Translations under genes and position numbers: made by a program
Part shown: one piece after another, positions 43,681 through 64,000 of the stretch
Layout: each line of letters starts with the position of its first letter
Position numbering within the stretch: the first letter of the stretch is position 1
From: Phoronis australis
Lineage: Eukaryota > Animalia > Phoronida
Length of the DNA stretch: 64,000 nucleotides
Direction: 5' to 3'
NCBI GenBank assembly: GCA_002633005.1
Contig: NMRA01000063.1
Coordinates: 390,438 to 454,437 of the forward strand
Notes under the pieces: model-generated
Database searches by the model: none
Seen by the model: only the letters and a program-made list of their open reading frames with translations
What the model was told of the DNA's origin: nothing

Positions 43681-44037
43681 TGTACTCTTCATTGCTTCCA
43701 ATGTTATTGGCTAGCATGAAACTGCATGCACTACTGTCCTGTACTCTTCATTGCTTCCAATGTTATAGGCTAGCATGAAACTGCATGCACTACTGTCCTG
43801 TACTCTTCATTGCTTCCTATTTTATAGGCTAGCATGAAACTCCATGCACTACTGTCCTGTACTCTTCATTGCTTCCAATGTTATAGGCTAGCATGAAACT
43901 CCATGCACTGCTGTCCTGTACTCTTCATTGCTTCCAATGTTATAGGCTAGCATGAAACTGCATGCACTACTGTCCTGTACTCTTCATTGCTTCCAATGTT
44001 ATAGGCTAGCATGAAACTGCATGCACTACTGTCCTGT
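43681..44037. repeat. 59-bp minisatellite x6
   Basis: Unit gtactcttcattgcttccaatgttataggctagcatgaaactgcatgcactactgtcct. Confidence 0.92.
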
Positions 44038-44374
44038 TCCAGTTGTGGCCAGTGCTTAATGTGTCTTATGACATTGAGTGTTTGTCTAAGTGCTTTGATA
44101 TTTGTATAGTGCCCAGTGCTGACTTGTCAATCGTGTGGCACTTTGAACTATTTGTTGAAAAACTGCAATTGTGTGTATGTCAAATTCCCAAGACAAAAAA
44201 ATGCTGTATGTTGTACTAACAGAATATCTAATAAGAAGTCTTGATGAGTGACTTTATGACAGTTTTTGTGTCATTAACACCTTGTTCTGGATAGTTGAAT
44301 AATCGTTCTTTAGTTGTAAAGCCCTCTGATTAATTGATTTATTTAACAACTATGGTCCACAAAATAATAGAGTA

Positions 44375-44562
44375 CAATATACCACTATACCAACATACTA
44401 TACCAATATACAATCTGATATCACTAAACAACATACTACTACACCAACACAGTCCTATACCAACATACTACTATACCAACACAGTCCTATACCAACACAG
44501 TCCTATACCAACATACTACTATACCAACATACTACTATACCAATACACCACTATACCAACAT
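44375..44562. repeat. Degenerate ataccaacatactact repeat
   Basis: Read directly. Confidence 0.75.
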
Positions 44563-47068
44563 GCAAAGAAACATTCATACAAATAATGCTGTAGTAGCAG
44601 TAAAAAGTAAATTAAATACAACAGTCGATGTGTGGATAGCGCAAAAATGTTTAAAAAAGACAATTTGGTGCAACTTGTTCGAAAGTCGTATAGCAGAGGA
44701 CACTATACACGCAGCAACATAGGCATGCGCGCACTCGGCCTAAAATACAGGGGGCTCGAATTTTTCGATATCTGGACCCTTCACTGAAAGAAATCGACGA
44801 GGACTAAAAAAATTGGGTGACTAGGTTCAGGCTCACGGACCATGCATCCGCGCAGACTTCCCGTGGATTTTGTGGACTTTTGTCCCGTTTACTCGGACTT
44901 CTTGTTTCACTGAAGCGGGCCTTTTTGCCCAATTCGCCAAATGGGTCGAGCCCCTCCTGGGTGCGCCCATGCATTGGCAATAGGGTTCAAGGACTGAGGT
45001 CGACAGTAAATGCGGTCCGTAAAATTGGGCCTTAGAATAATTACTTGCAACAGCTGTTTGGAAACTCCCCAGCTGCATGGTACTGTTGTGAAGGAAGATT
45101 GCAGTGACAAGCGTTTTGCCTCTACAGGTCACTAGCCCATAACATATATATTACAACTTTGATGAGAAAGGATAGCCTACATGAGATTCAGTTACGGAAC
45201 AGAAATAAACAGTGCCATAATCAATTATGGGGATCAGTTTCAGCATTTTTTGCCGCAGTCCTAGCTATAACTTACACATTTGACTACATTTTAACAGTGG
45301 CAAGTTGCAATTTCTCAAATTCATATTTGTTGACTTGATTGGTTGTAACTTTCGTCCAGAAAACCACAACAATGTCTACCTTATGGGGCTCGGGCTACGT
45401 TACGTACAGACACTCCCGTGAACACAAGTCCAGTGAGATACCCTATGTTATGAATCACTTGATCGCAATTGCGAGTGTCTTCGGTCTGACAGAGTACAAT
45501 CCCGGTCCTAGCTTGCAGAACCTCTCACTCCTAAATGGAGAGTGGATGTCGCCTCACGTTCAAAATGCGGGCCTCGGAGCGATAAAATGGGTTGGGCTAC
45601 TCTAGTCTATACCAAATGATGTAATTATACTTGAGAAGATAGAATAACCACTCTAGTTGGCGACTCGTCCCTACAAATTAACCTGTCCCTACATTTGCAT
45701 AACACTGTCTATGCAAATGATACCAAGTTTGATAGCCTGAGCTGTTCAGGTCACATGACCTTGTTTATTGAAATGATTCTAGAGTAACCGCGTGAACGAA
45801 AAGTTATTTAAAGCTGCCTAAAGCAAGCTAAAAACGAAAATAGAATTTGGCCTTGGTATTATGATATTCCTTACCGTAGCAGGATTCCATTTCCGTTGCC
45901 AGCTCAAGTCAAAGTCATTACGTACATGCATCATTTTCGCAAATTTTAGGTTCGGCCAACGCTAATAAACTTTGAAGCCTTTTCATGACTCGCTGATCAC
46001 TTCGTAACGATATTGTTGCTGGTAACGGAAATAGGAATATTACCAGACCCATTTCGTGAGAGTAAAAGGTATACGGTTCAATTTTCTTCTTTTTAGACAG
46101 CTAAGAAATGCAACTTTAACGTAAATGCGGCAAGTTTACACGTCATCATGAAAAACGAAGTAGCTATTATTTACGTTCACGGTTTATAGGTACAGTAGAC
46201 CTACCTGTTTTCCAAAAAAGTTTTGTGGGTTTTGAGATGCTACCCAAGCAAAAAACCTCTTCCAAAGCTGTGCTGCCTCGTGCGACATTTCCTGTTCTAT
46301 TGACAAAGTAACTAAAACGACCATTGTACAAAATTTTCAGGTAAAAAGTTACCAAACCCGGTTTTGGCCTGTTAACAGACACTAAAAACGAGTTCTCAGA
46401 AACAATTCTCCTTAACTCAAAAAACCCCAAACATTGAGGAAAAGTTGAACTCCTTTCAAAGCCTGCTAAACGGGCAAGCGTGACCTACACTGTCAGCGAA
46501 TTACTGCTGTGGGGAAAATACTGCCCACCAATGACCATAATGTCCAATTTGTGAGATAGGGGGGTATGAGTTTTTAGTTGATTACTGCTTTAACTTGGAA
46601 GATAAAGGCCAATACATTAGCAGGTGGCAGTACGCGGATTGGCTGAAATCATCAAAACAGGGTTTAGTATCCTTTTAAATATTTTTATTCTTTAAGTTTC
46701 ATAAGCTGATTTACAAGGCCCAGGGTGTTCGACACTCCATCTACTACAGCAACTGAAATAAAAGGATACGCACATATGTTTAGGTATATCGCGAACACCT
46801 GTCCTGTGCTCAGCGGCCAAGGTCATTAGTCGGCCTTGGATCACGATGTCAGCCCAAGACCTGTGCCATCGATTTCATACCCAGAGTCTTAGTGGCGAGA
46901 AAAAAACGACACGAACCGCGAACTTCATGGGTACTGGTTGTGGATCTAGAAAATGAGGATACCCACCCTAAGGACCTGAAACGGGGAGCCATTTGTACGG
47001 AGCTCTTGAAAAAGCCACTGTTTTGTATGGTATTGTTCCAGGAATACCAGCCTTTTGCAGTGAGGGAC

Positions 47069-47338
47069 CTAACCTCTTGTAAGAAGTCTTGGCCGGACTG
47101 TGATTGAATAAAGCTAACCTCTTGTAAGGAGTCTTGGACTGTAATTTGATAAAACTAACTTCTTGTAAGGAGTCTTGGACTCCAATGGGATAAAGCTAAC
47201 CTCTTGTGAGGAGTCTTGAACTATAATTGGATAAAGCTAACCTCTTGTAAGGAGTCTTGGACTATAATTGGATAAACCTCTTGTAAGGAGTCTTGTACTA
47301 TAGTTCGACAAACCTAACCTCTTGTAAGGAGTCTTGGA
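47069..47338. repeat. ~40-bp tandem repeat, ~7 copies
   Basis: Unit aacctcttgtaaggagtcttggactataattggataaagct. Confidence 0.85.
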
Positions 47339-47513
47339 CAGCTGAATTGTCAATCGTAAACAGTACAAGAAGGCGTCCATGTTGTAAAAAATGAGTACAT
47401 TTGCAATGAATTTGGAGCTTGGAACCTTTAAGTGATCAAGACTCCCAAAGTGCAATCCTTTGCGTTTTTTAAAGATTGGTAGTCTGATATCCAAGTTAGT
47501 CTGCGGTTATGGT

Positions 47514-47653
47514 TCATCTATCTGTATTGAGATGAACCTCTGATATTTCAAGGTTACTGGAACTTCTCCATCCAGTGTAACAGCTTCCCACACTTCTGAC
47601 TTTGAACGATACCTCTACAGCGCCTCTTACTGGTAGTTCACACATACCTTCAA
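47514..47653 (-). CDS. CTHRC1-like domain C exon c, terminal (EGMCELPVRGAVEV...CYTGWRSSSNLEISEVHLNTDR*)
   Basis: Acceptor ttgttttacag; TGW motif; TGA at 47516-47514. Confidence 0.9.
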
Positions 47654-48316
47654 CTGTAAAACAAACACGCCAGTCGAGCTTAACATTTTAACAACAACAA
47701 CCACAACACAATAAAATCTGCATTCTGTCAAAAGCTATATTTTAATTGATGTAAACCACTTAAAGGTACATTCTCCTCGAGAAAATTAATTTTACAGAAA
47801 TTAGATATAGCCAGTAACAGAACTCTGAGCCAACTCGAACGCGTTAAATAGTCTATTTTAAATACACCAACTTGACGTCAGTGAATGTCTAATAAACAAC
47901 GGCGAGAATTGGCGACTTGTAATAGAATCACAAGAACACAGGGGATTTTGTTATTTTAAAGTTCTGGTAGAGACGAGAGTTGCACTACAATAGTTGGTCC
48001 CTGTACTCCTCAAGTATATTGCTCTTTGTAAGAAGAAAAGTCCAAAATATGTCTTGTTTCCGAAAGCTTTTCTTATTTATTTTGACTATAAAATTTAACG
48101 TAAACAACTCTATAACCTGTTTGGTGGCAATATTTAATAAGTTAGTTCATCCCTAATTGAGTTGACTTCGTTACCACAAAAACCCAACGTTTCACCAGCG
48201 GCACAAAACTAAAAGGTATCTTAAGAAGAAGAGATCATATTACTGATATCTATTCAATGATTTGATTATAACAAAGACCGGAGACCTAGTTATTGTATAT
48301 ATACATACACATACAC

Positions 48317-48389
<73 letters not shown>

Positions 48390-51300
48390 GGCCTACACAT
48401 GCATGCATACATACATACATATAAAAATTAGATGGAAAACTAATTTTGGTGATTGGTATTGTTTTTTGGTCAAATTTTATGCACAAAAACTAGATTTTTA
48501 AAGCCTCTTAACATAATTTGGGGTTCTGCGAAATTTATGATTCTATAGCGGTTGGCTTAGGAGACAGGAATATTCACCAGGGGAGGGATGGTCAAACAAA
48601 CAACGGGGGGAAGTGTTGGATGGGGGAGGCATTTTGCGATGATTGGGGGACCACAACCTTTTTATTTCACCCGTGGCTAAGGCAGGGTTGGCAAGGGTAT
48701 AATATATCTAACAGGCTTACAGAATAAGTTATAATACACATTTTATGAATCAATTATCGATGAACCTATACAGGTACTTACCAACCGATGGTTGATGATA
48801 ATTGTGATATGTGTGACTCATGACGATGGAGCCGAGGATTGGTCCTGGATTCGAGCACTCGACGTCATTAAATGCAAAGTACCATGCGCAGCTCTGGGAG
48901 TTGGAATTCCAGTATGACGCTCTCAAGGTGCCCAACCAACGTACTTTGAGTGCACTGCGGCTTGACAACTTGAAGTATTCCACTTTCTGTTCGCAAATAG
49001 AACAAGCACATCATGTTTACTGCCCTTTTGGGAATGCCTTTTGAAATGAGGGCAATTAAATTTTATCCAACTAGAGAGCATTTTGCGGAAATACTTTCTA
49101 AAATGAAATCATACCGATAAGAATCTTTAATACGCAGACTCTGATAAAATACCATGAAATTGTTTTAGCGTTTCCAGCACTTTAACCGGCTATATACCAG
49201 CGGTAACATGACGGTTCACAAAACACATTTTCAGTTCCTTTTTACCGCGCAACTCTTGCCAGGCCAAGTTCATTCGTTCCTCCAGTCGCGCTGGTCACCC
49301 TGAGTTCAGCACCCAGCCATCGCCACCAAACGCTAGTGACGCAAATTTGCTGCGCCATTCGGATGGCAGCAAACGCGGTGGATTGATCAAACGAAGAAGC
49401 ATACTCGGGATAGTCAAAGATTAGTCCAGTGTACTCCCGCTAAGACTTCGGCACAGGCGCTTTGGTGAACACAAAAATGGATAAACCCACTGCTATCGGT
49501 GACCATTTAGTTCCATCTAGCCACACCATCAATATCTACAATACTAGAGTTCTAGCCAGGGGGGAACATTGGCACTCCCGCAAGATCAAAGAGGCCTTTT
49601 ACATTAAACAATACAACCCCCCCACTCAACCGTGACCAGGGACTACAACTTCCTCCCATCAACCACAAGGACGTGTTACGTTACTTCCGGTTCTACAATG
49701 GCGGGAAGACCAGCCATGTGATCAAGGGCCTGAGCTGCAGACTATGCTTATCTGACTTATAGTCTTCTAGTAAGTAAAGTCTGTCGTTTTTACTATCATC
49801 ACAGAAGACGACGATGAATTATTAACACTTTTAATCATTACAGCGGGCTTGTAAAGTCAGTCCCTCAAATTTGGTTAGCTACCCTTTATATCAGTCTGAA
49901 TATGTAAAACAAAAATTCCTAGCAATTTCGACTCCACTGTTGCATACACAGGCGTCCTCAGCTTCTGATCGTCCCCAATACACTACATATAATACTACTA
50001 TATGTAGTGTATTGGGGACGATCAGAAGCTGAGGACGCCTGTGGTTGCATATCGTCAGTGCTCAAACGGGGTGCTCAAACTTTAGGAAGACTTTGTCAGA
50101 AACTTGAAAGCCCCAAATAGCCATGTGGATAGTGCCCTGCAGAAGTGGGTTAGAGTTTTAAATGTTATTTATGTTGATGATTTTGATTGGTCCAAAATTT
50201 ATCCATTACCTTATGTGTTAGCGTTAGATTCATATTTTAAGGTATTTCACGTACAAAATTGTACGCTGTATCTATAACAACAAATGTATTTTTAACGTTA
50301 ATTAAAGTTCAAGAGAATGACTTGTGTTACGAAAATATAAACGTAAATGAACACTTTTCGGTTACCCTGATAAAAAATTAACATCTATTTGCATATTTAC
50401 AAACATGATAACAAGTTACACGAAACTTGGGACGAAGACAGGGTCGAACGTCAGCACCAACAGTCCAAAACTTGAAATTTGCGGCATCTCCAGTCTTCAT
50501 CACCAAGGCGTCCTCACGCGTTCCGTTGAGTCCACTAGTCCACCAAAATAATACAGTCAAGTTCCATACACAAGACGCTACTGTCCGCGCCGTAGCAAAG
50601 GCTCACCACGTGAACAAATAACGCTCAGTATTCAGAAAGTATGAAGAAACCATAAAGTCCAGCCTCAGTGTTCAGACAAATCATGATACACGTCTGCTCA
50701 CCATCAGCGACCAACTAGAACTCCGATAAAACTCAAAACTGCCCCCTAGCTCTCATAGTCAGACTATATGAAAAGAAATTAGCGCGAAATTCTTGCCTCC
50801 CAAAACGTCACTTCCGGAGTAGACTACGAGTAATTAATTAAATTACGAAAAGCAGTAAATAAGTGAAAAAATATGTCTGGGATAATCAACGAACCTTATT
50901 TTTGCTAAAAATGACATGAAAAAAGGTTGCCTTCGCCTTTAATGATACTCACAATACTGCTATATCTGGTCTCTGGTCTCGTTTTCGCACCATTGGAGTT
51001 TCTCATTATTTGTTGGCGTCTTGCTTTTTAATTTTTTTCTCGACTGCATTTATTGCATTCGAGCTTCAAATGCCAGCGAAGTGTTACTGCAACCAATCAG
51101 CTACATCGACATGTATATAATGTTCTCATTGGTTGCAATTTAGCAATGCGTTTCCTACCTCCGGGAGATTTCTATCTGGGACCGTTCATATCAACCAATC
51201 ACTCACACTTCATGCCTTATATATAATACCTCATTGCGAATCCCCCTTCCCTCATGCTCCATTCCAGGATTCCAGTGGCCAAGATAAAATTTCAGATGCT

Positions 51301-54300
51301 TTACAAATGAAACTTTTGCCAAGACCAAATGTCAACAGTTGTACAACAGAACAATTTCATACACCCAGAACCCATAATTTCAGCTGCCGTATATAACTAC
51401 AGTTGAACCACCGTACAGTAAATAATAAACAGATTCAGACTCCACCCACTGCAATTGTGGTTGAAATATAGTTCAACAGTAGAACTCAAGTGAACAGTCA
51501 CCCTGCAACTGCATAACCAAATGTAAAATAAATAAAACCCAAATTTTGTTTTGATGAGTGTGAAGAACACCGGTGTAGCTACAGAGGGCCATGTCCCCCT
51601 TCATGACAGCGTTCTGTCGTTCAGCAACTTTCCAGACGTGAAGGGTTCTAAACGTGCGGTAACATCTGGCTTTTTTGTTAACTGCCCAGGACAGTCGTTT
51701 GTCCCGTATGACTACAAGCAGGCCAATTATCTACCAGGCTTCACTGGGTTACTGAAACCTGGCAGAATAGATTGTCCTAACCAGTGGCGGATCTAGGATA
51801 TCACAAGAGGGGGCCCAACATTTTGTCTGTAAACATTTGCGCAAAGCACGACTGTAGATGCGCATAGCACCCAATGGGGGGAGGTCGGGAGGGGAGAAAT
51901 TTTTAATTTCTGTTTTTTCCTTGTATCCCGAAGTATTATCCAAGAAAAAAGGCAAAAAAGAGAAAGTGTCAAACAGGAAAAACTGCAGGAACCACAGACT
52001 CGAACTCACGACCTGACGATAGAGCACGCGTGCTTTACCACTGCACCACCACGATTTAACTCCTAATTTGCTACTAAGAGACCTACTTGTTTATGGTCCA
52101 CAGCGTTTACGGGCGAAACCTTTTTTGTAATGTTTATTACAATTTTTATATTTTGTGCAATCAGTTCGTAACAAATTTGTTGTATTTAAAATAGTCTTTA
52201 ATTGCCCAAAAGACCAAATCCGTTATTTTGTGTTGGCATAATGACGCGATTGCTTTGGAAATCGTCTTAAGGTTTGACAAAGAGAGAATTATGAGTTTCT
52301 GAGTGATTCACTGAGGCTTCGATTAAAATTCACATCTTACCAGCAGCTTCTGTTTTTTCATCGTCACCCAGATTCCATTTTCTTTAAAAAATGAAGTAAT
52401 TTTCTTCATTGCACAGTGAAGCAGACGACGGAAACAGAGTCGTAGTGCGCAGCCCCACTGCCGGTCGCCTGGGATATCGCGGGAGAGCCTATATACTTAG
52501 CCATAGTTCCGTTACGATTGATCCGTGTTCCGAATTTGACACTTGAAATTGGATCTGAGCCCCCCCCCCCAACACAATAAAACTGCACACATTTCAATCT
52601 TGTTTCCGCCGTATAATGTTAATTACCGGGGTTAATTAATAAACTCAACATTTCCCTACGCTCTTGCTATTTTATTTTTTGCGGCCAAGGGGCAGGCTGA
52701 TCCGATCCGATCGGAGATTAGAGCAAAAGAGAGCCGGCCCTCCCGACCATAAATGCCAGAGTGGAGTTAATCAGTCGTGTAAGATATTGGCTACAGGGGT
52801 AAACTTCCCAACTTGCTGTTGGGCTATTGAATCGAACAAATTGGGAGCAACGGGAAAACGCCGTAATGTTGATCATTGATAAAAAATCCTCCCCGGGTCA
52901 ATTTCAATTCATTTCAAAATGCCCTCTTTGCCACTCGTTTTCTCAATCACCTGGTCTCCAGCAATTTCACGTTTGTTCCGCCCCCTTCCTCTTCGTACTC
53001 CTGGATACGCTAGTAGTGATGACCTGTCATGGAGAGTTGTCGTAGCTCCATAGACAGCAGTGTCAGTAATTACTAAAATATTGAAGAAACGTTTGCCTGA
53101 TTCAACCGCCCGCAACATGCGCACAACGCATCTTGTTCAGGTAACATCAAAGATTTTATAGTTACCTTGGGATATAGTATCTTTGGTATCACACACAAGT
53201 TTTCGTAGACTGAATTAATTTCAGTCTAGCGCGGAAAAATAATGTAAACTCACTTTGATTTGCCCGTTGGTCGTCCCCGTATTCAGTGAGTGCCAATAGT
53301 GGTGAGCCAAGTTGAACTGCGGCACACGGACGCTTGTGCCATCTGGTCGAACATCTAAAGATAGAACGTCGCAAATAACCCACTGCTTTAGACAAAGGCT
53401 AAATTACTAAACAATGGTGTCAGTGCAGGGTGCAAAGAATGTTATGGTTTCGCCTCTAAATTCCAGCTTCGATACCCCAAGCCCCCGTCTCGAACCAGTA
53501 AACACCAAACCCAAGGTACAAAGTCCATACCTGCGCCCATTAACTCGACACATGCACCAAAAATACCGGACGGTACCACACAACATCCAATCCTGGACCA
53601 TGGGTCTGGCTGAAGAACTGATCCTCGGGTATATGGAACAGGGTATGATGCATTTTCTTTGGGTGTGTGGAGTTTGGGTAGAGGGTACGAAGGCTGTACC
53701 ACAGGTTTTGTGTGTTAGTCTGATACTGATGATACAGCGAATGAAGCTAGAATTTAGGTGAGCACGATGGGATCGTGTCCATCCCTGAATGTAGTCGTAG
53801 AAAATTAGAAGATAAATTAGGTTCTGTTACGTAGTAATGCAGTAAGACACACTGTTTTCGTAGACATGAAATAAAGTGACAAATGTACTTAAATTCAGGC
53901 CGTGGTATTGCAAAAATTCCGGAAGATGAAATTTTACTCGGTGTAGGATTCCATGGCTGTAATAACTGTCTACAATGCTGCCTTTATATCATATTTACAT
54001 AAGTGTTAAAACTAAGGCGACGTGACATTTAACTTTTAGTAAGGTATCAAAGAAGTCTACAATGTGGTTGCCGTTCGCAAAGATAATTTACTCTGTATGT
54101 TTACACGACTCAAGAAATTCCCCTTGCCGTGCGAGAGACGATGACAAGACACGAAATTTAAGTTTGTAATAATTACGTGAGACTACATGCGCATTACAAA
54201 AGAAATGTATCTCCTCGTGTATTCGTGAAAAAGAAAGCTAAACAGCTGAGGGAGACAGACTGTCGACCTTGAGAAGATAGGGCGTTTGGCAGCCTGAAAA

Positions 54301-57300
54301 CTGCAGACGATCGCTTCTTTCGCTTGTTCCTTTTTTACGTAGAGTGACTACTTACATGCACTGATCTTTGAATTCAACCTGACTTCCTCAACAATAATTC
54401 GACTGTAGCTGTTCGAACCCTGGTAGGGACTTATGGATCCGCCGCAGTCTTGATGCCATAGCTGGATTTTTACATTGCCTTCAGCTAGTCCTTTACAGAT
54501 TCCACCAACTACAAAATTGGCATGATTCGCAAGAATCTCCGATCAATGTCTGGAGCACCTTAAGTTCGACTCTAGGGTCACTCGGTGATTTTGATCTTGA
54601 AAAGCGTACTTCATACTGTGTAGGTCATTCTTTTTCAAGTTAGCACCATGAATATTTTAGTCCAAATTAGCTCATTTTTGGTTCAAGGAGGCTCAATAAG
54701 TAAAACAGTTTCAAAACGGTTTAGAAGAATTGGAAACAAAAAATCTTAATGATGTACTATTAGACACAACCTCTCTATCAGAAAACAGCTTCTGCATCTT
54801 CAAACGGGTTTCTGTTAACTTTCTTTTGAGCGCCAGAATTCGGTAAATTTTGCCATTTTTGTGTTTGATTTTTAGCTATTTTTGAGGTGCTCTGCGGGCC
54901 AGTTAGCGGGGCGCTGGTAGTTTCAAATACAATTTTCCATCATGCAGTTTGTTTCGACAAACTAAGAAAATAACAAATATTAAAAAATGTTTTTTATTTG
55001 TTTCCAAGCAACAGCCGGCAATGCAAAGGACAAACTATCGCGCATTTTACAGTCCTTGACTACAAGCAATCTGTAGATGTATCTATTAAAGCTCGTTAAA
55101 GGAGATTCAGTAATTTTTGCAAAATATTTTTCTATTGTGATGAAAACCATAATCTTCTTAGCCCATACATACAAACTATTCACAAGGCTATTAAAAATGG
55201 AAAGGAGAAACAACTGGAAGAAAATCAACCCCGAGAACAAGCAGGGTTTAAAAAGAGCTACTCAGCAACAGACCATCTGCAAGCGCTTGGACAAACAATT
55301 GAAAAATGTAACGAATTTAACCTGCCACTGTGTGTTGGTTTCATAGACTATGAAAAAGCTTTTGATTCAATTGAACATTTTGCCATTATTGAAGCCCTAA
55401 AAACATCAACATAAATGAAAAATATGTAAAACTGCTGCAAAATATATATACAGATGCAACCGCCACAATACACATCGACAACCACGTCTCTGAAAGATTC
55501 AACATAGAGAGAGGAGTTCGACAGGCAGACCCAATTTCACCTAAACTGTTTACACTGACAATGGAAGAGATCTTCAAATCTTCAGACCTTCGAAGGGGAG
55601 TAAACATAGACGGAGAACATCTAACAGACCTAAGATTTGCAGATGATGTTGCTTTGTGCACAGAAGACATAACACAACTAGAAACAAATTTAAATATACT
55701 AAATGAAGAAAACAACAATGTGGGATTAAAGATACACAAGGACAAGACAAAGTACATGACAAATTTTGAAACAGATGAACAAGTAATGGTGGAGAACAAG
55801 ATCATTGAAAAAGTCACACAATATAAATACCTGGCACACTATACAAATGGGGAACCGTATGACCAATGAAATACAAATCCGAATAAGAGCTGAATGGAGT
55901 TACTTTGGAAAAAAACAGAGAGATATTCCAAGATAAGAACATACCCATATCCCTGAAAAGAAAAGTATTTGACCAGTGCATCATCCCCACAATTACCTAT
56001 GGATGCCAAACATGGACCTTAACAAAGCAGATAAAAACACAGAGAGCAATGGAAAGAAAAATGCTTGGAATAAAATTACTAGACAGGATTCCACACACAG
56101 AGATAAGAGAACAAACAAGAGTCATGGACATAATCAAGACAATTCTGAAATTGAAATGGAGGTGGGGCGGACACGTGTCCAGAGCACAGGACAACAGATG
56201 GACAAAAAGATTACAGAGTGGCAACCCAGATATGGAAAGAGATCAAGAGGACGGCCCCACGCCAGATGGAGAGATGACATCGTGAAAACGATAGGCCCAA
56301 CATGGATGAGAGCAGCAAGAGACAGAACAAGTTGGAAGGCATTGTCAGAGGACTACATCCTGCAGTGGATGGACAACGCCTAGATGAGATGAGATGAGAT
56401 GAGATTAAAACCAGCGACTTCAATTTTTAAATGATTCAAGTACTGCTAGCCTCCCTGGTGACAGCTTCTATAACTAAATTTCTTTGGTAAAAGTTCATGA
56501 AATTTGGCAAAATGTTTCTATCGAAATGTTTTCAAGTGATTCTAACCTGTGTTGTCCTACCGGCAGTAGTTATAAGCGTTTTGGAGACGGTTCACGTGTC
56601 TAATGTTTGCAACCACACCTGCCGCCAGCAAGTGTCTAATGTTTGCAACCCCACCTGTCGTCAACATGTGTCTAATGTTTGCAACCACACCTGTCGTCAG
56701 CATGTGTATAATGTTTGCAACCACGCCTGTCCTCATCATGTGTCTAATGTTTGCAACCACACCTGTCGTCAGCATGTGTCTAATGTTTGCAACAACACCT
56801 GCCGTCAACATGTGTCTAATGTTTGCAACCACACCTGCCGTCAGCATGTTCTAATGTTTGCAACCCCACCTGTCGTCAAAATATGTCTAATGTTGGCAAC
56901 CACACCTGTCGTCACCATGTGTCTAATGTTTGCAACAACACCTGCCGTCAGCATGTGTCTAATGATTGCAACCACACCTGTCGTCAACATGTGTCTAATG
57001 TTTGCAGCCACATCTGCCGTCAGCACGTGTCTAATGTTTGCAACCCCACCTGTCGGCAAAATGTGTCTAATGTTGGCAACCACAACTGTCGTCACCATGT
57101 GTCTAATGTTTGCAACCACACCTGCCGTCAGCATGTGTCTAATGTTTGCAACAACACCTGTCGTCAACATGTGTCTAATGTTGGCAACCACACCTGCCGT
57201 CAGCATGTGTCTAATGTTTGCAACCACACCTGTCGTCAGCATGTGTCTAATGTTTGCAACCCCACCTGTCGTCAACATGTGTCTAATGTTTGCAACACCT

Positions 57301-60300
57301 GCCGTCAGCATGTGTCTAATGCTTGCAACCCCACCTGTCGTCAGATGCTAACTACTGCTGCGACAGTCTACCTTATTACCGAACAATCGTTATATTAAAT
57401 GTAATGAAGCCTTTTCAATATGATTTTTTTTCATTTCTACAGGATTCCAAAAAGTGATTTCGTCACTTCCTATAAGAGATAAAACATATCTCAAAAATAT
57501 TGGACGCATGGGCTTCAAACTTTAAAGTTAGTTGAGGGTTGATTCTAGTAAATAATCTCAAGTGATATCAGAACAGCAAAGTTGATGTGTAAGCCAAAAT
57601 GATCGTGACAACCTTTTAACACAGTAATTTATTTTAGAAAATCTCTGCAATACAAAGGGAGCCATCATTATGAAAGTAGAAGTGCATAACTGCTACCATG
57701 GCCACTGAGTACTCCAAAAACATTTCTCCATGATTATAAAATAGGAGATGTTGCACGAAAGAAGGGTTTGAGTAAGTGTCACGTGTCACACTTCATCATC
57801 CAAATGCAGCCTATACCTGTAAACCAATTAAGATTTATTCGCATTTTGTTGCTCTTAATTTGTTAACATACGTCATAAAAATGATTTGAAAATACAGGTC
57901 CAAATATAGGTCAAAATATAGTAGCAAGCAACCCATTTTTCCTACCAGAGAAACTGACCACTCGGAATGAGTTGACACGGCACAGCTTTGTGAGTAAACA
58001 GAGGTTAAACTTACTTGGGTGATCTCTCATTTGGTATCCCGTCTTTGAACTGCCATAATGTGTTATAATACCATCTATTTTCCCTGGGTTAGAACACTCC
58101 AAGTCGTTGAACCTGAGGGAGTATAGCGCGCAGGTAGTACCTGTGTGACTAGGAAGCTCACGGAGTTGACCTCGCCACACGACCCTTAGTCCCGTTGACG
58201 ACAATCGCTTCGAAAAATTTATTATCTAGTGAAGAAAAACAGTGGTTTTACACAGAGTTTTGAACAGCTGCATGTCGCACTTGTTAATATAGCTAAAAAT
58301 GAAAATCGAATTAGTTCTTTACTCTAATGAAATTGTCATGATAATCCTTATCATGATCTGATTCTATTACAATTAGAAATTAACAAACACTTGATCCAAA
58401 TCCTTTACTCAAGAAAGCGGCGAAATAATGTTAGGGATATTTCGGCAAACACTGCGGCGTTAAGCAAACAATCAATCTTATGTCAAAGTAGCTATTCAAA
58501 AATACACATTATTTTCACCAACAATGAAATATAATTGCTTTTTAGCGTTCTTCATAACAAAATCAGTCCATCACACAGTTTTTATTTATAGGCAGTAATT
58601 TATTTTTGTCACACCTAATAGCTAATCTAAATCATGTAAAAAAGATAATTTCTATTTCTGATATACATCTCGAATAATATCATTGTAGGCTCTATTATTC
58701 TATTCATGTCAGTCCTCAACCAAATCAATATTCACTATTATTCTACATATGTTTGCCATAAGTATGATTTATGTCTGGCAAAAATACAGCCAATGGGAAT
58801 CGAGCAACTATGTCAGATATAGACAAAGGAAAAATGAATTGTGATATAAATCAGCCACTGAGAATTCATCATTTCTCTATTTTATGTCTGACGTAATTCT
58901 CCGATTCTCATTCAGATCAGACACAGATTAACGGTGGATTTTAAACTCGTTTTAACCAGACATAAGTAGAGAATGGCAGCGAGTCATGAATCATTGCACA
59001 TGACAATTAATTCGGGAACTGTGTCAGTCATTATTGAAATTATGTTTAGCACATTTTGACATAATACTTATTGTAGTATGCGATGTTCATTTGTTTGTGG
59101 AATTTCCACGAGAAGTCGTTATGGATTCCAGTTGGTGCACCTTTTAGTAAAACACCTTATTCACGCAGTCGCATTATTACAAAGAATCTCATTTTAGGTT
59201 TTAAAAACAATGCTTTCCGCGCTTAATTACAGTGCAGAACATGTTTTTCGCTTGCCTCGTTATATTTATATTTATATCTCAAATGCATGGTTTTTAAACC
59301 TAAACAGAGGAACATTTTTAAAATAGCGACTGCCTGGATAAGGGGCTTGTTCCAAGAAACTGACTTAAGTTCATTTTTTACTTAAGTTTAAAATTTGTCT
59401 TAACTTCCAAATTTTGAAACTTCCACATTCGGTAAGTTAGTCAAAATTAAGACAAAACTTATGTCAAACACTTGAGTCAAACTTAAGATCTCTTTCTTCA
59501 ATTTATTTTTAAACAGATTTAACTTTCATTTTAAGATTTACTAAAAATTTAAGATTTGTCTTAGCTGAGTGACTTTTGTTGGAACGGGCCCAAGGTCTAT
59601 GGGTAATGTTAAATGGCTAAATCACTAAAAAGTATAAAAGCTCCCAGCGGAGTACGACCTCATTCTAAAACCAGGTCAACCTGACTTGGAAGCATTTGGC
59701 ATTGAGTTCATTAAATGGAATTGAATATACAATTTGATGTTTTTTGCACAAACGCCCGCCCATATATAACATCATATCGGAAAGCAATGGAAATCTTTTC
59801 TATCGCAAGGTCTATATACTCATTTCTCAGTTATTTGTGGTCATTTCACTACATTTATCATACATTAATTTCTGGTTTCTGATGGGCTGCGGCTACAAAC
59901 TCCTATTGAACATTGATTATGGTGACGATTCGCATTTACTGACCACATGTGTAAAGCATACGCGCAGGTCACTTACTGCAAAGGCTACTGCGTCGTTCTT
60001 TGTTGCCGCATCATTTTGCCAGAAAGCTTGTTTGACGTTGAACGAACTCAAGGCAGAACACGTCGTTTTGTCTAGATGAGAACAAACGCGTAATCGTGAT
60101 TACTGTGTCACACAAATTTGTGATTGTATTAATAACAGCATAAGCACAAAAAAGGAACCTGTTAATGGTAGACAAACGTGAAAAATATTTAGTTACAACT
60201 TTTATGTCCAGAAAACATGGGTTTGTACACTTTCAAAAATGAACCCACCTTTCGTCCCAAAGCCAACTTTTGATTTAGTTTTTTAAGTTCTCTTAAAAAG

Positions 60301-63300
60301 TTGTTTATTGATCGACACAATGTTCTAAAGCTTGACATATCATTGCTTGTCATATTATTGGTCGAACATAGTAAGACCAAACATATCTCCTAATTTGACC
60401 CACAAACAAGTCGAGTTCAACTTTTTAGCGCCAAATGATCTAAATCTAAATCCAGTTTCTGCGACGGAACGAGGGTTTGTTACCGATTGAACGAGGGTTT
60501 GTTACCGATTGAACGACAGTTTGTTACCGATTGAACGACAAAAGCTACTGCAGTACTTGCTGCAACTCATTTTAATCAGGCGTCAGCTGTCATGGCAAGT
60601 ATACTTTACCTAAGCTCGCGGACATGTCCACTTCCCGAACCATGAGGCGCGCGTACGAATGGGAAGCGAACAATATGTGCGAGCTGTAAGAACTGTTTTC
60701 CGTACTTCCTTTACAGTTGCTTACATAAACATCAATGGTAACGTCACCGGCCGCCAGTCCTTCACAAATACCATCAACTAAAACATTTCATCCAATAAAT
60801 AATATTTGATACTGTACATTCTCAAATATAATTTCTTTTTCAGTGTAATCTATATGTGTCAAATCACATGTAATGTTGTCACAGTTATTAACATAAAGTA
60901 AAATTTGATTTGCGGGTAGTTAAAAAGACGAAGTTAACAGCTCCAAACTCAGTTTGTTCAATTCGGCCAGTGTCACCGACGGAATTTGAATTCTTGAATG
61001 TAATTAAAATTTTCTTTACTTTAACCGAAAGCTGATGTTGGTTCACCTAGAATAGCACAATTAGAGAAAAAACATATTAATTGATGCTGGGGCATCTACA
61101 ATAGCACAATTAGAGTAAATAAAAGCATATTAATTAACATCAACTTATTTACGAGGACATTTGGTCAATCTTCACCAAGTTTCATATTCTCTATTTATCG
61201 CAAGATAATATTAATGTTTTAAACACTGAAATTACTGAACTGTTATTTGAAATGAAGTAAATTAAGAAACGCTACTTGACCACCTTGTGTCTTTCAAAGC
61301 ATGTACATGTATAATACGTGTAAAGAATTTTGATTAAAAAATCAATCAAAGTTAATTTTAGTAAAAATACTAGATTATAATTCAAATTATACCGGAAGCT
61401 GCTAATTCATTTTTTCATCCGCAACATGAAGGTAGGAAGTTACTATTACAAAAACATCAACACCACATATTCTTTTTCAAGTTAAATAGCTTTGAAAAAG
61501 ATTTAGAAAATATCAGATTAATCTAAGTATTTTTAAAAAAAAGCTCTTGAAAGAAAAAGTATTAAAAACACATAATACTAAAAAATATTAAAGCTAATAA
61601 AATGTCTTGGTGATTAGTAAACAGCGTCCAGTAAACAGAGTCCAGTAAACAGCGTCCAGTAAACAGCGTCCACAATTATTTCAATGTTTATTTCGTGCAT
61701 GATCTATGTTAAGAGTGTGATTGAATTTGCAAGATTTGGAATTTATTATTGTGATTTCTTTATCTAGATAGTTTTTCAAAAAACTGTGAATTTGTAAAAT
61801 TCAATGACAATTGCGCTCATATGATTATTTTAGTACCTTTGTGATCTTTGGTGGATGTTTTTCCTAGAATCATTGTGTGGATGTATGGCTTTATGAAAAA
61901 CAGATGTTGATTCTATTGTAATGTTAGTATGGAATGAATAAAGGTGCTGTCGATTCTATTGTAATGTTAGTATGGTATGAATAAACGAGCTGCTGATTCT
62001 ATTGTAATGATAGTATGGTATGAATAAACGTGCTGTTGGTTCTATTGTAATGATAGTATGGTATGAATAAACGTGCTGTCGATTCTATTGTAATGATAGT
62101 ATGGTATGAATAAACGTGCTGTTGGTTCTATTGTAATGATAGTATGGTATGAATAAACGTGCTGTTGGTTCTATTGTAATGATAGTATGGTATGAATAAA
62201 CGTGCTGTCGATTCTATTGTAATGATAGTATGGTATGAATAAACGTGCTGTTGATTCTATTGTAATGATAGTATGGTGTGAATAAACGTGCTGTTAATAA
62301 AAAAAGTTTCATGAGAGTTGTAACCTTTAGCAATTGTGATATTTCAAAAGATTTGAAACCAATGAAATTAGATACTTCATATGTAATTGTTCGCTCACAT
62401 ACCACACCGCGCGTTGTCATTGATTGTCATTTCACATGTTATAAATGATGTTTGATATTTAAAACGAATACTAAAAACCCGATGCATGGTAATGGCCGCG
62501 GAACAAAATAATTTTAAAGTTTTTTACATTGGTCACAAATGTTCCTAGAGAGTGTTGAAGGTTCACGATATGTACAATTATATTTAAAATAAACACAGCT
62601 TTGACCTAACGGCGACAAGATAATCTCAGAAAAGTCTGTTTCTTTTTGCTCGAAGTTAAACTGATTTTTGGTCGCAAGTGGAACCGTTTATTTCATCACA
62701 GTGCAGCCTGACGGTTTAATTGCAGTATATTTTGAATTAATTGACCTACCTTCTTCCATTTTTCCGTAGAGCAAGTTTACGTCACTCTCGAAATGAATGA
62801 TGTCTATTCCACCTGATTTGGGACATGTCGCTCCATTAAACTTGAAATACAAGGTTGCACAACACGCAATAGAACACCCCTTGGAGCCACGAAAATCGGT
62901 AAACAATGTCACGTGCAGACCGGATTTCGGGGATTTTTTCGGGTACACTTTGGTCTGGAAAATTGAAATTCATTTTAATCGAAGAGAAATGTCAATTGAA
63001 CAGCAGAGGGCAAGCAGACTCTATTTGACTTCTAGTAAAGAATGCAGGCTGCGTTCCGCACTTACAGCGAAAAAGTTTCGTTTTTGAAATGGAAAAAATG
63101 ATGCTATAATTAACATTCCGTCTTTCACCGCCGACCATCACTTCGGTGGCTGCCATTTTATTAGGGTGCGCTTGTTAGGTAGGATACGCGACCCAGTCAC
63201 TCAAAATTTTTTTACACTTGCGACGTCAGTGGTGTAAGCCTATCCGACGGGATTAGACTACTCGGGGGATAAAACTGAACTATTTTGACCTGTCTCAAAC

Positions 63301-63838
63301 ATGCAGTGATGCGAACTCAAGGTTTAAATTTATAATTTTCATATTGGATGAATATCTCTCCGTCTTCATTAATAAAATTTGCAATTTTTCAGCGCATCGT
63401 TTGTCGTGTTGCATATGCATGTACATGTGATTTGTTTGAGACTTGACACTGACAGGTTTTCCTTTCAAGGAGTAAAAGCCGCGGACGACGCCGGGAAGAA
63501 CGAGTTTGCGATCTTTCTTTTAAATCAAAATACGTCACATGTCAAACCTCCTCAGCTCGCTAAATGTCGGGGTGTAAAACGTTATTGAGAGACTGAGACG
63601 CGTTTGCGTAATATGCACGCGAAACACGTACTTATCATTCTGCGTGGATTTGCGTGGTCTTGATTGTGTTTTGCGTCTACAGGTAATTGTGTTTTGCGTC
63701 TACAGGTAATTGTGTTTCAAAATGTTACCTGCAGTTTATGTTCTTCTGCCAATCTGGTCGTCCACTCTTGGTTTGTCTTTCCAATATAGAATTGTCGGAT
63801 GTTGCCGAGAATTTCTTCAGAACAATCGTCCGTGTCGA
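47514..63838 (-). CDS. 5'-partial gene with three tandem CTHRC1 C-terminal-like domains; complement(join(47514..47653,48782..48986,53254..53354,54356..54508,58015..58225,59977..60071,60610..60777,62750..62954,63729..63838))
   Basis: Nine GT-AG exons totalling 1388 nt (2 nt + 462 codons) splice in frame. Each trio matches the CTHRC1 C-domain pattern N-x-K-Q-x-x-W / F-x-K-x4-L-x-V...C-x2-WYF-x-FN-x2-EC-x2-P-x2-I / EG-x-CEG...TGW-x-S-x-SRIIxEE, recalled from the human protein. Confidence 0.88.
48300..48420. repeat. (CA)n/(TACA)n microsatellite
   Basis: Read directly. Confidence 0.95.
48782..48986 (-). CDS. CTHRC1-like domain C exon b (KVEYFKLSSRSALKVRWLGTLR...CAWYFAFNDVECSNPGPI...)
   Basis: Acceptor tttgcgaacag; donor G|gtaagt; same 205-nt length as the domain A exon b. 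Confidence 0.92.
49445..49815 (+). mobile_element. Penelope-like retroelement 3' remnant (GIY-YIG endonuclease C-terminus)
   Basis: Frameshifted translation RRFGEH..KPTAIGDHL...HTINIYNTRVLARGEHWHSRKIKEAFYIKQYNP.LNRDQGLQLPPI; the RxxEH, KEAxYI and LNRDxG motifs are typical of Penelope endonucleases. Confidence 0.85.
49947..50043. mobile_element. 97-bp perfect fold-back MITE, 45-bp arms, 7-nt loop, 8-bp TSD GTTGCATA
   Basis: 49947-49991 is the exact reverse complement of 49999-50043; TSD at 49939-49946 and 50044-50051. Confidence 0.93.
51989..52052 (-). repeat. tRNA-derived (SINE-head-like) fragment
   Basis: A-box TGGTGCAGTGG and B-box GTTCGAGTC on the minus strand; no complete cloverleaf. 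Confidence 0.5.
53254..53354 (-). CDS. CTHRC1-like domain C exon a (VRPDGTSVRVPQFNLAHHYWHSLNTGTTNGQIK)
   Basis: Acceptor ctatctttag; donor AAA|gtgagt; WHSLNTG...GQI resembles WSSLNYG...GKI. Confidence 0.88.
54356..54508 (-). CDS. CTHRC1-like domain B exon c (GGICKGLAEGNVKIQLW...SYSRIIVEEVRLNSKISA)
   Basis: Acceptor aattttgtag; SRIIVEE motif; donor GCA T|gtaagt (phase 1). Confidence 0.88.
55150..56403 (+). mobile_element. 5'-truncated, frameshifted RTE-clade LINE (RT domain) with (GATGA)n tail
   Basis: EQAGFKK, FIDYEKAFDSIEH, RGVRQADPISPKLF, LRFADD, LKWRWGGHV, GRPHARWRDD; TSD-like at(g/t)aaaacca at 55140-55149 and 56404-56413. It lies in an intron of the CTHRC1-like gene, antisense to it. 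Confidence 0.92.
56593..57346. repeat. 36-bp minisatellite, ~21 copies
   Basis: Unit catgtgtctaatgtttgcaaccacacctgtcgtcag. Confidence 0.95.
58015..58225 (-). CDS. CTHRC1-like domain B exon b (IINFSKRLSSTGLRVVWRGQLR...FNDLECSNPGKIDG...)
   Basis: Acceptor ttcttcactag; donor A|gtaagt. Confidence 0.9.
59343..59591. mobile_element. PIF/Harbinger-type MITE, 3-bp TSD AAG
   Basis: aag|gggcttgttccaa...ttggaacgggccc|aag; internal cttaag repeats. Confidence 0.6.
59977..60071 (-). CDS. CTHRC1-like domain B exon a (KTTCSALSSFNVKQAFWQND...AFA)
   Basis: Acceptor ttctcatctag; donor GCA|gtaagt; NVKQAFW resembles NYKQCSW. Confidence 0.88.
60610..60777 (-). CDS. CTHRC1-like domain A exon c (DGICEGLAAGDVTIDVYVSNC...ARLMVREVDMSASL)
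   Basis: Acceptor gttttag; no stop; donor TTA G|gtaaag (phase 1). Confidence 0.88.
61903..62294. repeat. 43-bp minisatellite x9
   Basis: Unit tctattgtaatgatagtatggtatgaataaacgtgctgtcgat. Confidence 0.93.
62750..62954 (-). CDS. CTHRC1-like domain A exon b (TKVYPKKSPKSGLHV...CSIACCATLYFKFNGATCPKSGGID...)
   Basis: Acceptor caattttccag; donor G|gtaggt; CC-x3-YFxFNG-x2-C motif. Confidence 0.9.
63729..63838 (-). CDS. CTHRC1-like domain A exon a (DTDDCSEEILGNIRQFYIG...HKLQ)
   Basis: Acceptor ctgttttcag (phase 1); donor CAG|gtaaca (phase 0). Confidence 0.75.
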
Positions 63839-64000
63839 CTGAAAACAGTGATCGAGGTCTCATCACATTGACTCTTGACAATGATGACGTAACAAACTCA
63901 GGCTCGGCTCCAGTTTTCCGCCATTCCACCAGACGAAGAAGGTCTCAAGATGAGACCGAAAGCTTGTGGTTTCTATGTAAACTTCATGACACCGAAAGGT

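Follow-up and report, generated by a model that had tools for sequence, protein, structure and literature searches.

In a 64,000-nucleotide stretch of the genome of the phoronid Phoronis australis (GenBank assembly GCA_002633005.1, contig NMRA01000063.1, positions 390,438 to 454,437; hereafter the window), we identified a minus-strand gene that encodes three diverged copies of the CTHRC1 C-terminal, or head, domain, here designated A, B and C. The gene is real and expressed, and its three heads are joined in one chain. Predicted structures of two relatives lead us to propose that this one transcript gives rise to three CTHRC1 heads that probably close into a single-chain, pseudo-three-fold head of the C1q/TNF type, likely secreted and likely to bind extracellular targets.

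The window is animal DNA, and its introns are long and rich in repeats. The gene runs from position 63838 to 47514 on the minus strand and comprises nine exons (E1 to E9) bounded by AG and GT, with all eight introns of the GT-AG type and intron phases in a 1-0-1 pattern that is repeated three times. Domain A is encoded by E1 (63729..63838; the end of a Cys-rich pre-head linker and the first strand of the domain; phase 1 in, 0 out), which is assigned by homology only, by E2 (62750..62954; middle of the domain, phase 0>1) and by E3 (60610..60777; end of the domain), whose phase-1 donor carries on into E4 (59977..60071; phase 1>0). The last of these contains the A>B linker, with its conserved cysteine, and the start of domain B, which continues through E5 (58015..58225; middle, phase 0>1) to E6 (54356..54508). 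E6, which likewise carries on from a phase-1 donor, holds the end of the domain and the first half of the B>C linker. The second half of this linker and the start of domain C lie on E7 (53254..53354; phase 1>0), the middle of domain C on E8 (48782..48986; phase 0>1), and its end on E9 (47514..47653). The spliced frame is open across 461 residues to a stop codon in E9 (47516-47514), and the first AATAAA 3' of E9, at 46689, is a candidate poly(A) signal.

The Pfam profile PF25815 (CTHRC1_C) matches five of the nine exons singly, E2 (E 3e-4), E3 (2e-4), E5 (2e-7), E6 (4e-5) and E8 (1e-9), with E5 and E8 alone passing its curated cut-off. A second profile, built from seven coral-type single-domain proteins from metagenome loci, recognises three domains in the spliced chain, at 57.9, 80.5 and 72.5 bits, and E2 and E9 (E 3e-4) are among the exons that it matches; across six frames of the whole window nothing but the six larger exons reaches E<1e-3, and there is no further copy. 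An earlier note on this DNA had proposed that nine exons splice in frame into three divergent CTHRC1 C-terminal domains, and had asked for a profile check; both profiles, the GT-AG joins and the open frame bear this out. No Pfam C1q or TNF sequence match is listed for the window exons or for their relatives. The repeats are each ~150 residues long and share ~28-30% pairwise identity (26-41 identities over 86-147 columns), their alignment scores being 63-131 against shuffled maxima of 53-58, with A-C the weakest pair. Next to no similarity is left among the three modules at the DNA level, which, together with the low protein identity, indicates that the repeats are old. The 461-residue chain contains no Gly-X-Y run of three or more, in keeping with the earlier reading that the linkers lack collagen.

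The first exon was the best among 28 candidates for its position; it adds +9.2 bits, a gain that 0 of 300 shuffles reach, and it holds a cysteine that is invariant in all six of the three-domain relatives described below. Its acceptor is uncertain, as three upstream in-frame AGs (63871, 63907 and 63943) score within ~1 bit. A likeness of motifs had raised the idea that E1 is a remnant of a Penelope GIY-YIG domain; we rejected this, since neither E1 nor the whole open frame around it has a Pfam match, and E1 fits the CTHRC1 family.

If the E3 or E6 donor is left unspliced, read-through meets a stop within a few codons, and RNA reads are therefore decisive as to whether the three domains form one chain. 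We picked four RNA runs by species label (X1 to X4), examined ~18-19% of X1 and of X2, and mapped reads over two stretches that cover four of the eight junctions, E1>E2, E2>E3, E5>E6 and E8>E9 lying outside or across them. The A>B junction, 60610>60071, is crossed by 14 spliced reads (9 in X1, 5 in X2) and the B>C junction, 54356>53354, by 21 (11 in X1, 10 in X2). Spliced reads also cross 59977>58225 (5 in each run) and 53254>48986 (7 in X1, 4 in X2), so that E4 and E7 have read junctions on both sides. The first mate of all junction reads lies on the plus strand, which under the usual stranded protocol means minus-strand RNA, and exon read depth, E3, E5 and E8 included, is alike across the three domains at roughly 5-12. 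Depth past the E3 and E6 donors is explained by exon bases alone (0.35 in the bin 54144-54362, zero in the bin 60370-60515) and gives no sign that either is used as a terminal exon. X3 and X4 have zero depth over E3-E5, and the B>C stretch was therefore examined in two of the four runs, X1 and X2. Counting raw-read runs alone, the exons are seen in 2 of 3. The earlier note had predicted one chain in which A and B continue through phase-1 donors and only C ends in an exonic stop, and had named these two inter-domain junctions as the place to look; frame and reads agree with it on both counts.

These reads also bear on whether the locus consists of three tandem paralogous single-domain genes, or yields a read-through chimera of them. 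The early stops that unspliced transcripts would meet fit such an arrangement, and tandem CTHRC1 paralogues are common in invertebrates according to the available text of Leclere et al. 2020 (PMC7058181). Against this, 35 reads from two runs splice over both inter-domain boundaries with no depth past the donors, no exon for a signal peptide or a collagen is spliced in between the domains, and each of the relatives unites three domains, joined by the same linkers, in a single protein. We consider separate genes extremely improbable and largely refuted.

The reads further reveal an allelic difference at 54436, within E6 (4 of 8 reads in X1, 1 of 5 in X2). By a hand derivation, the variant would put Phe in place of Ser in a part of domain B that looks like a loop.

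Word-based searches with E5 alone or with the three middle exons found no homologue among 44 and 305 candidates. A HMMER scan with the three middle exons against 1.84 billion representative proteins gave 279 matches at E<=0.001, the best 150 of which were used; the top three are three-domain proteins, in a ranking that favours multi-domain proteins since scores add. Among 156 proteins, the number of CTHRC1_C domains is one in 124, two in 6, three in 8, and four, eight and nine in one protein each, with none over the length filter in 15. The three-domain animal proteins among the matches listed are RefSeq models of Lingula anatina annotated as 'uncharacterized' and one Logan protein, so that the search for the same architecture suggested in the earlier note does return it. 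The Lingula models represent five genes (XP_013395411, with an isoform, XP_013419728, XP_013417801, XP_013399537 and XP_013412409); three more Lingula models and one Bugula protein are partial or two-domain. The window model is colinear with the three-domain relatives (28-33% identity by blastp over 415-457 residues) and keeps 54 of the 66 columns that are invariant across six of them. Their domains are accompanied by a PAN_1 domain (found in P0001, P0002, P0003, P0005 and P0156), a Cys-rich segment and, mostly, a hydrophobic N-terminus, without collagen. In an animal, intron-containing metagenome locus (L016/L017), both the A>B linker motif and the intron phases match those of the window gene. 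By sequence comparison, the window gene belongs to an animal family together with the Lingula PAN-3xCTHRC1_C proteins.

The 5' end of the gene lies beyond the window, and the earlier note had accordingly entertained more heads or a collagen upstream of E1, in which case the three domains would be the tip of a longer, stalked or multi-head protein. There are multi-head proteins of this kind, such as P0008 from Oscarella, with a collagen and four heads, and the bacterial-type P0154, with nine. However, E1 aligns to the Cys-bearing segment ahead of domain A in proteins of the PAN type, and not to an inter-domain linker or Gly-X-Y, and runs of G-X-X do not exceed three in any of the six three-domain relatives. 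We regard a longer chain of heads as very unlikely; the relatives point rather to a missing 5' part that probably encodes a signal peptide, a PAN/apple domain and the Cys-rich segment.

Other combinations of heads occur among the proteins and loci retrieved. In P0008, a fibronectin type II domain accompanies the collagen and the four heads, while P0010 of Branchiostoma floridae consists of folate-receptor repeats, a His-rich stretch and a head, all twice. An Actinia protein has two collagen-head units, and bacterial-type proteins have three, eight or nine heads. The intron-containing metagenome locus L015 (2587-6060) has a tandem series of several CTHRC1_C exons, in which two domain-end exons follow one another and intron positions are shifted, and its motifs resemble those of the Bugula two-domain protein.

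The resemblance to the three-domain relatives extends to the linkers and to the position of each domain. The window chain agrees with five of six relatives in the length of its B>C linker, and its A>B linker, by eye two residues longer than theirs, has the same cysteine. Both linker cysteines, Cys5 before domain A and Cys165 in the A>B linker, are invariant in the relatives and kept in the window chain. On A, B and C class profiles built without the window sequence, E4 scores 16.9 bits on class B and 4.7 and 10.4 on the other classes, and E7 20.2 bits on class C and 3.0 and 3.6 on the others. In a quick tree of 77 domains with their linkers, A, B and C form one group each (SH-aLRT, a Shimodaira-Hasegawa-like approximate likelihood ratio test, 90/84/85), a result as low as which was reached in none of 500 label shuffles.

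We modeled two colinear relatives, P0003 and P0002, with AlphaFold2 without templates, and carried the fold over to the window chain. The P0003 model (49-row alignment) has a predicted local distance difference test score (pLDDT) of 76 and a predicted template modelling score (pTM) of 0.72; the corresponding values for P0002, from 12 rows of the family only, are 70.5 and 0.73. Each protomer is predicted to be a jelly-roll sandwich of the C1q/TNF superfamily, and the three protomers to pack with bell-like three-fold symmetry of the C1q/TNF type. Foldseek gives a single-chain gC1q as the best match of the P0003 model. With VIA-align, this model matches 5hkj, 5hzf and 5kca at Z 21.7 (339-354 residues aligned over three domains, root-mean-square deviation (rmsd) 3.6-4.0) and 4zch, an APRIL-BAFF-BAFF fusion, at Z 19.3, the next row after the single-chain trimers having a Z of 12.2. 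The P0002 model matches single-chain trimers at Z 22.1-25.7 (rmsd 3.4-3.8), best of all 5hzf (Z 25.7) and the adiponectin 4dou (Z 25.2; 342-343 residues aligned in these two, rmsd 3.4-3.7), with a next row of 7.7. The identity of the models to the single-chain trimers is 7-9%, and a sequence search of the PDB finds no CTHRC1-like chain; the match is thus not a template copy. The nearest single-domain folds of the P0003 model are the Pgp3 C-domain and the TNF-like lectins PLTL and BC2L-C-Nt (Z ~12, 8-16% identity). When three cut domains of P0001 were predicted as a complex of separate chains, the score was 0.41, against 0.42 for the control, which weighs neither for nor against the trimer, and the ESM Atlas gave no usable match for P0001. 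The asymmetric intramolecular pseudo-trimer put forward in the earlier note is supported by the models of both relatives.

The three heads could instead be arranged as beads on a string or in a domain-swapped network, in which heads trimerise across chains (AAA, BBB, CCC) to build rods or a matrix lattice. Proteins with two, four or eight CTHRC1_C domains exist (P0012, P0010, P0008, P0021), so that three is not an obligatory number. Yet the animal family has exactly three domains, with short, length-conserved and position-specific linkers, whereas in the two- and four-domain animal proteins collagen or other long spacers separate the heads, and the two independent models each predict one compact unit that matches single-chain trimers. 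Packing across chains is in our judgment improbable.

Several points weigh against the closed single-chain head. In CTRP4, two C1q domains behave independently and only one oligomerises (PMC9952994), indicating that tandem heads need not pack in cis. The modeling itself may be biased, in that AlphaFold2 may lean towards a C1q/TNF arrangement learnt in training whenever three jelly-rolls are linked; the fold is transferred from relatives at ~30% identity, with the window chain itself outside the modeling. The P0003 model is poor in its domain C (pLDDT 45-78), and the lectin matches drop to Z 6-8 in the P0002 model. Domain A has lost the usual Gly-Trp near its end and has an insertion there, and the class profiles that assign B and C of the window clearly assign A barely (77, 70 and 74 bits on A, B and C). 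In a linker-free tree (FastTree, core columns), C holds weakly (0.71, with two Bugula domains inside) and A and B mix; the three window domains nevertheless each lie closest to one from the matching position, and much of the signal that groups A, B and C sits in the linkers. The full-length model is in part a prediction, at the four junctions beyond the two read stretches, at the 5' end and as to secretion. Finally, a shared fold says nothing on the ligand.

How such a head could have arisen is suggested by the repeated phases, which are those expected if three copies arose from one symmetric three-exon module of phase 1-1. The triplication may then have been fixed because each copy occupied its own seat in the trimer. 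In a C1q/TNF trimer, the two ends of each protomer sit side by side at the base, so that short linkers can join three protomers, as engineered in 5hkj and 4dou. A single-chain head of this kind would replace the three-chain, collagen-held trimer of ordinary CTHRC1, and the collagen would no longer be needed. Covalent linkage would also allow divergence among the three copies and among the three clefts that separate them, perhaps to form one asymmetric recognition surface; domain A is the most altered of the three copies. Two family-specific cysteines, one ahead of A and the other in the A>B linker, are left over from the core pairs and may staple the base of the trimer, perhaps through a disulfide between them.

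With the signal peptide and PAN/apple domain expected from its relatives, the product would act outside the cell, in recognition or adhesion. Our leading guess, held tentatively and by analogy, is that it does so in the manner of a lectin, with glycans as ligands, because sugar is bound between protomers in the nearest folds and a mussel protein with three C1q domains binds bacteria. PLTL, for example, binds sugar between neighboring protomers according to the accessible part of PMC12914763. A protein partner or receptor is only slightly less likely as the ligand. A purely structural role in the matrix seems unlikely; the part of a Lingula shell-proteome paper available to us (PMC13425148) names neither CTHRC1 nor two searched accessions, and a shell-matrix role is therefore without support from that paper. 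More broadly, the family could be an old and undescribed one of animal secreted lectins, combining PAN/apple with a natural single-chain trimer of three specialised CTHRC1 heads and three different sugar-binding clefts; the human CTHRC1 head would then be a self-trimerising TNF-like binding module, akin in fold to bacterial fucose lectins, and such trimers would have been fused repeatedly, in animals, dinoflagellates and bacteria. This wider reading is rather doubtful.

Canonical CTHRC1, as described in the available text of PMC7058181, consists of a signal peptide, a short collagen and one PF25815 domain; the same source proposes from ab initio models that the head is C1q-like, and reports that an HHpred search with just the head returned nothing significant. 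The window chain shares with it the head domain, with its core Cys pairs, and, going by the models of its relatives, the predicted C1q/TNF-like trimeric arrangement, but has three diverged heads and no collagen in its 461 residues, and its relatives carry PAN/apple instead. According to the legend of Fig. S5 in PMC7058181, proteins of Symbiodinium can have as many as three Cthrc1 C-terminal domains (A, B and C), and thus likewise three PF25815-type domains in one predicted chain; these are dinoflagellate proteins, grouped there with bacterial sequences, and the text as available offers no structural reading of them. The Lingula proteins, of the gene's own family, are colinear with the window chain at the identities given above and share its linkers and extra cysteines, and their N-terminal part corresponds to sequence beyond the window. 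Three searched accessions of the Lingula three-domain proteins, and Bugula, are absent from the available supplement text of PMC7058181, in which the eight Lingula entries (14 of 32 places listed) are other sequences.

Among proteins of similar design, the best functional analogues are the secreted multi-C1q proteins of bivalves (smultiC1q), most of which have three C1q domains (PMC6835236 and PMC10672478, as far as accessible), and the mussel protein HcC1qDC6, whose domains bind bacteria and pathogen-associated molecular patterns (PMC5519582, accessible portion). Like the product predicted for the window gene, they are secreted and collagen-free, with three tandem heads of the C1q/TNF fold, but these are Pfam C1q rather than CTHRC1_C, have no sequence similarity to the window chain, and their repeats are explained, in the text available, by valency and not by an intramolecular trimer. 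The best structural matches of the two models over all three domains are with the engineered single-chain gC1q (5hkj, 5hzf), adiponectin (4dou), Cbln1 (5kca) and APRIL-BAFF-BAFF (4zch), which, unlike the window chain, are man-made C1q/TNF fusions. The BC2L-C N-domain, PLTL and the Chlamydia Pgp3 C-domain, the closest solved single-domain folds of the P0003 model, are homotrimers of separate chains, and the likeness to them is one of fold only.

The earlier note had found this architecture unfamiliar for CTHRC1. That view needs to be narrowed, as the three-domain design is in print for Symbiodinium, three-domain C1q proteins are in print for bivalves, and animal and bacterial-type multi-head proteins are present in databases; novelty is limited to that extent. 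What stands is the animal family: full-text searches, with most subscription journals outside their reach, returned no publication that treats an animal protein with three CTHRC1 domains, or the fold of such a protein. This family is undescribed in the literature found, and is predicted to resemble a fused C1q/TNF head while being by sequence neither a canonical CTHRC1 nor a C1q-domain protein. Human CTHRC1 is a much-cited marker of fibrosis and cancer, and we found no solved structure of its head. If our interpretation is correct, a natural, collagen-free single-chain trimer would be an easy target for expression and crystallisation, would fix the geometry of the trimer, and would point to the inter-domain clefts for the ligand. 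It would also be a case in which triplication of symmetric exons turned a homotrimer into an asymmetric one-chain head, in parallel to the bivalve three-C1q proteins.

Apart from the CTHRC1-domain gene, the window contains several repeats and a second gene. About 90 bases upstream of E1, a plus-strand sequence at 63925-63965 folds into a hairpin; it may be a degenerate hammerhead-like sequence such as occurs at the ends of Penelope-like elements, and an Rfam scan over 44000-64000 gave no hammerhead or other credible RNA. Intron 5 holds a broken fragment of a non-LTR (non-long terminal repeat) retrotransposon (55100-56383, plus strand, with RVT_1 matches), antisense to the gene and adjoined by a 36-bp tandem array at 56596-57344. 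In intron 7, a near-perfect 54-bp inverted repeat (49941-50049) resembles a miniature inverted-repeat transposable element and attracts reads from other copies on both strands. A serine hydroxymethyltransferase gene occupies 6254-43091 on the plus strand, with PF00464 matches on exons near 6.5 kb and 39.8 kb; its last exon, presumably the one with a stop at ~43091, places the gene end ~4 kb from the CTHRC1-domain gene, tail-to-tail. Its introns (11.9-13.3 kb, 23.3-24.5 kb and 28.6-38.1 kb) hold a dense family of diverged 140-450-bp repeats with a common short CCACCTAGTGG-type core.

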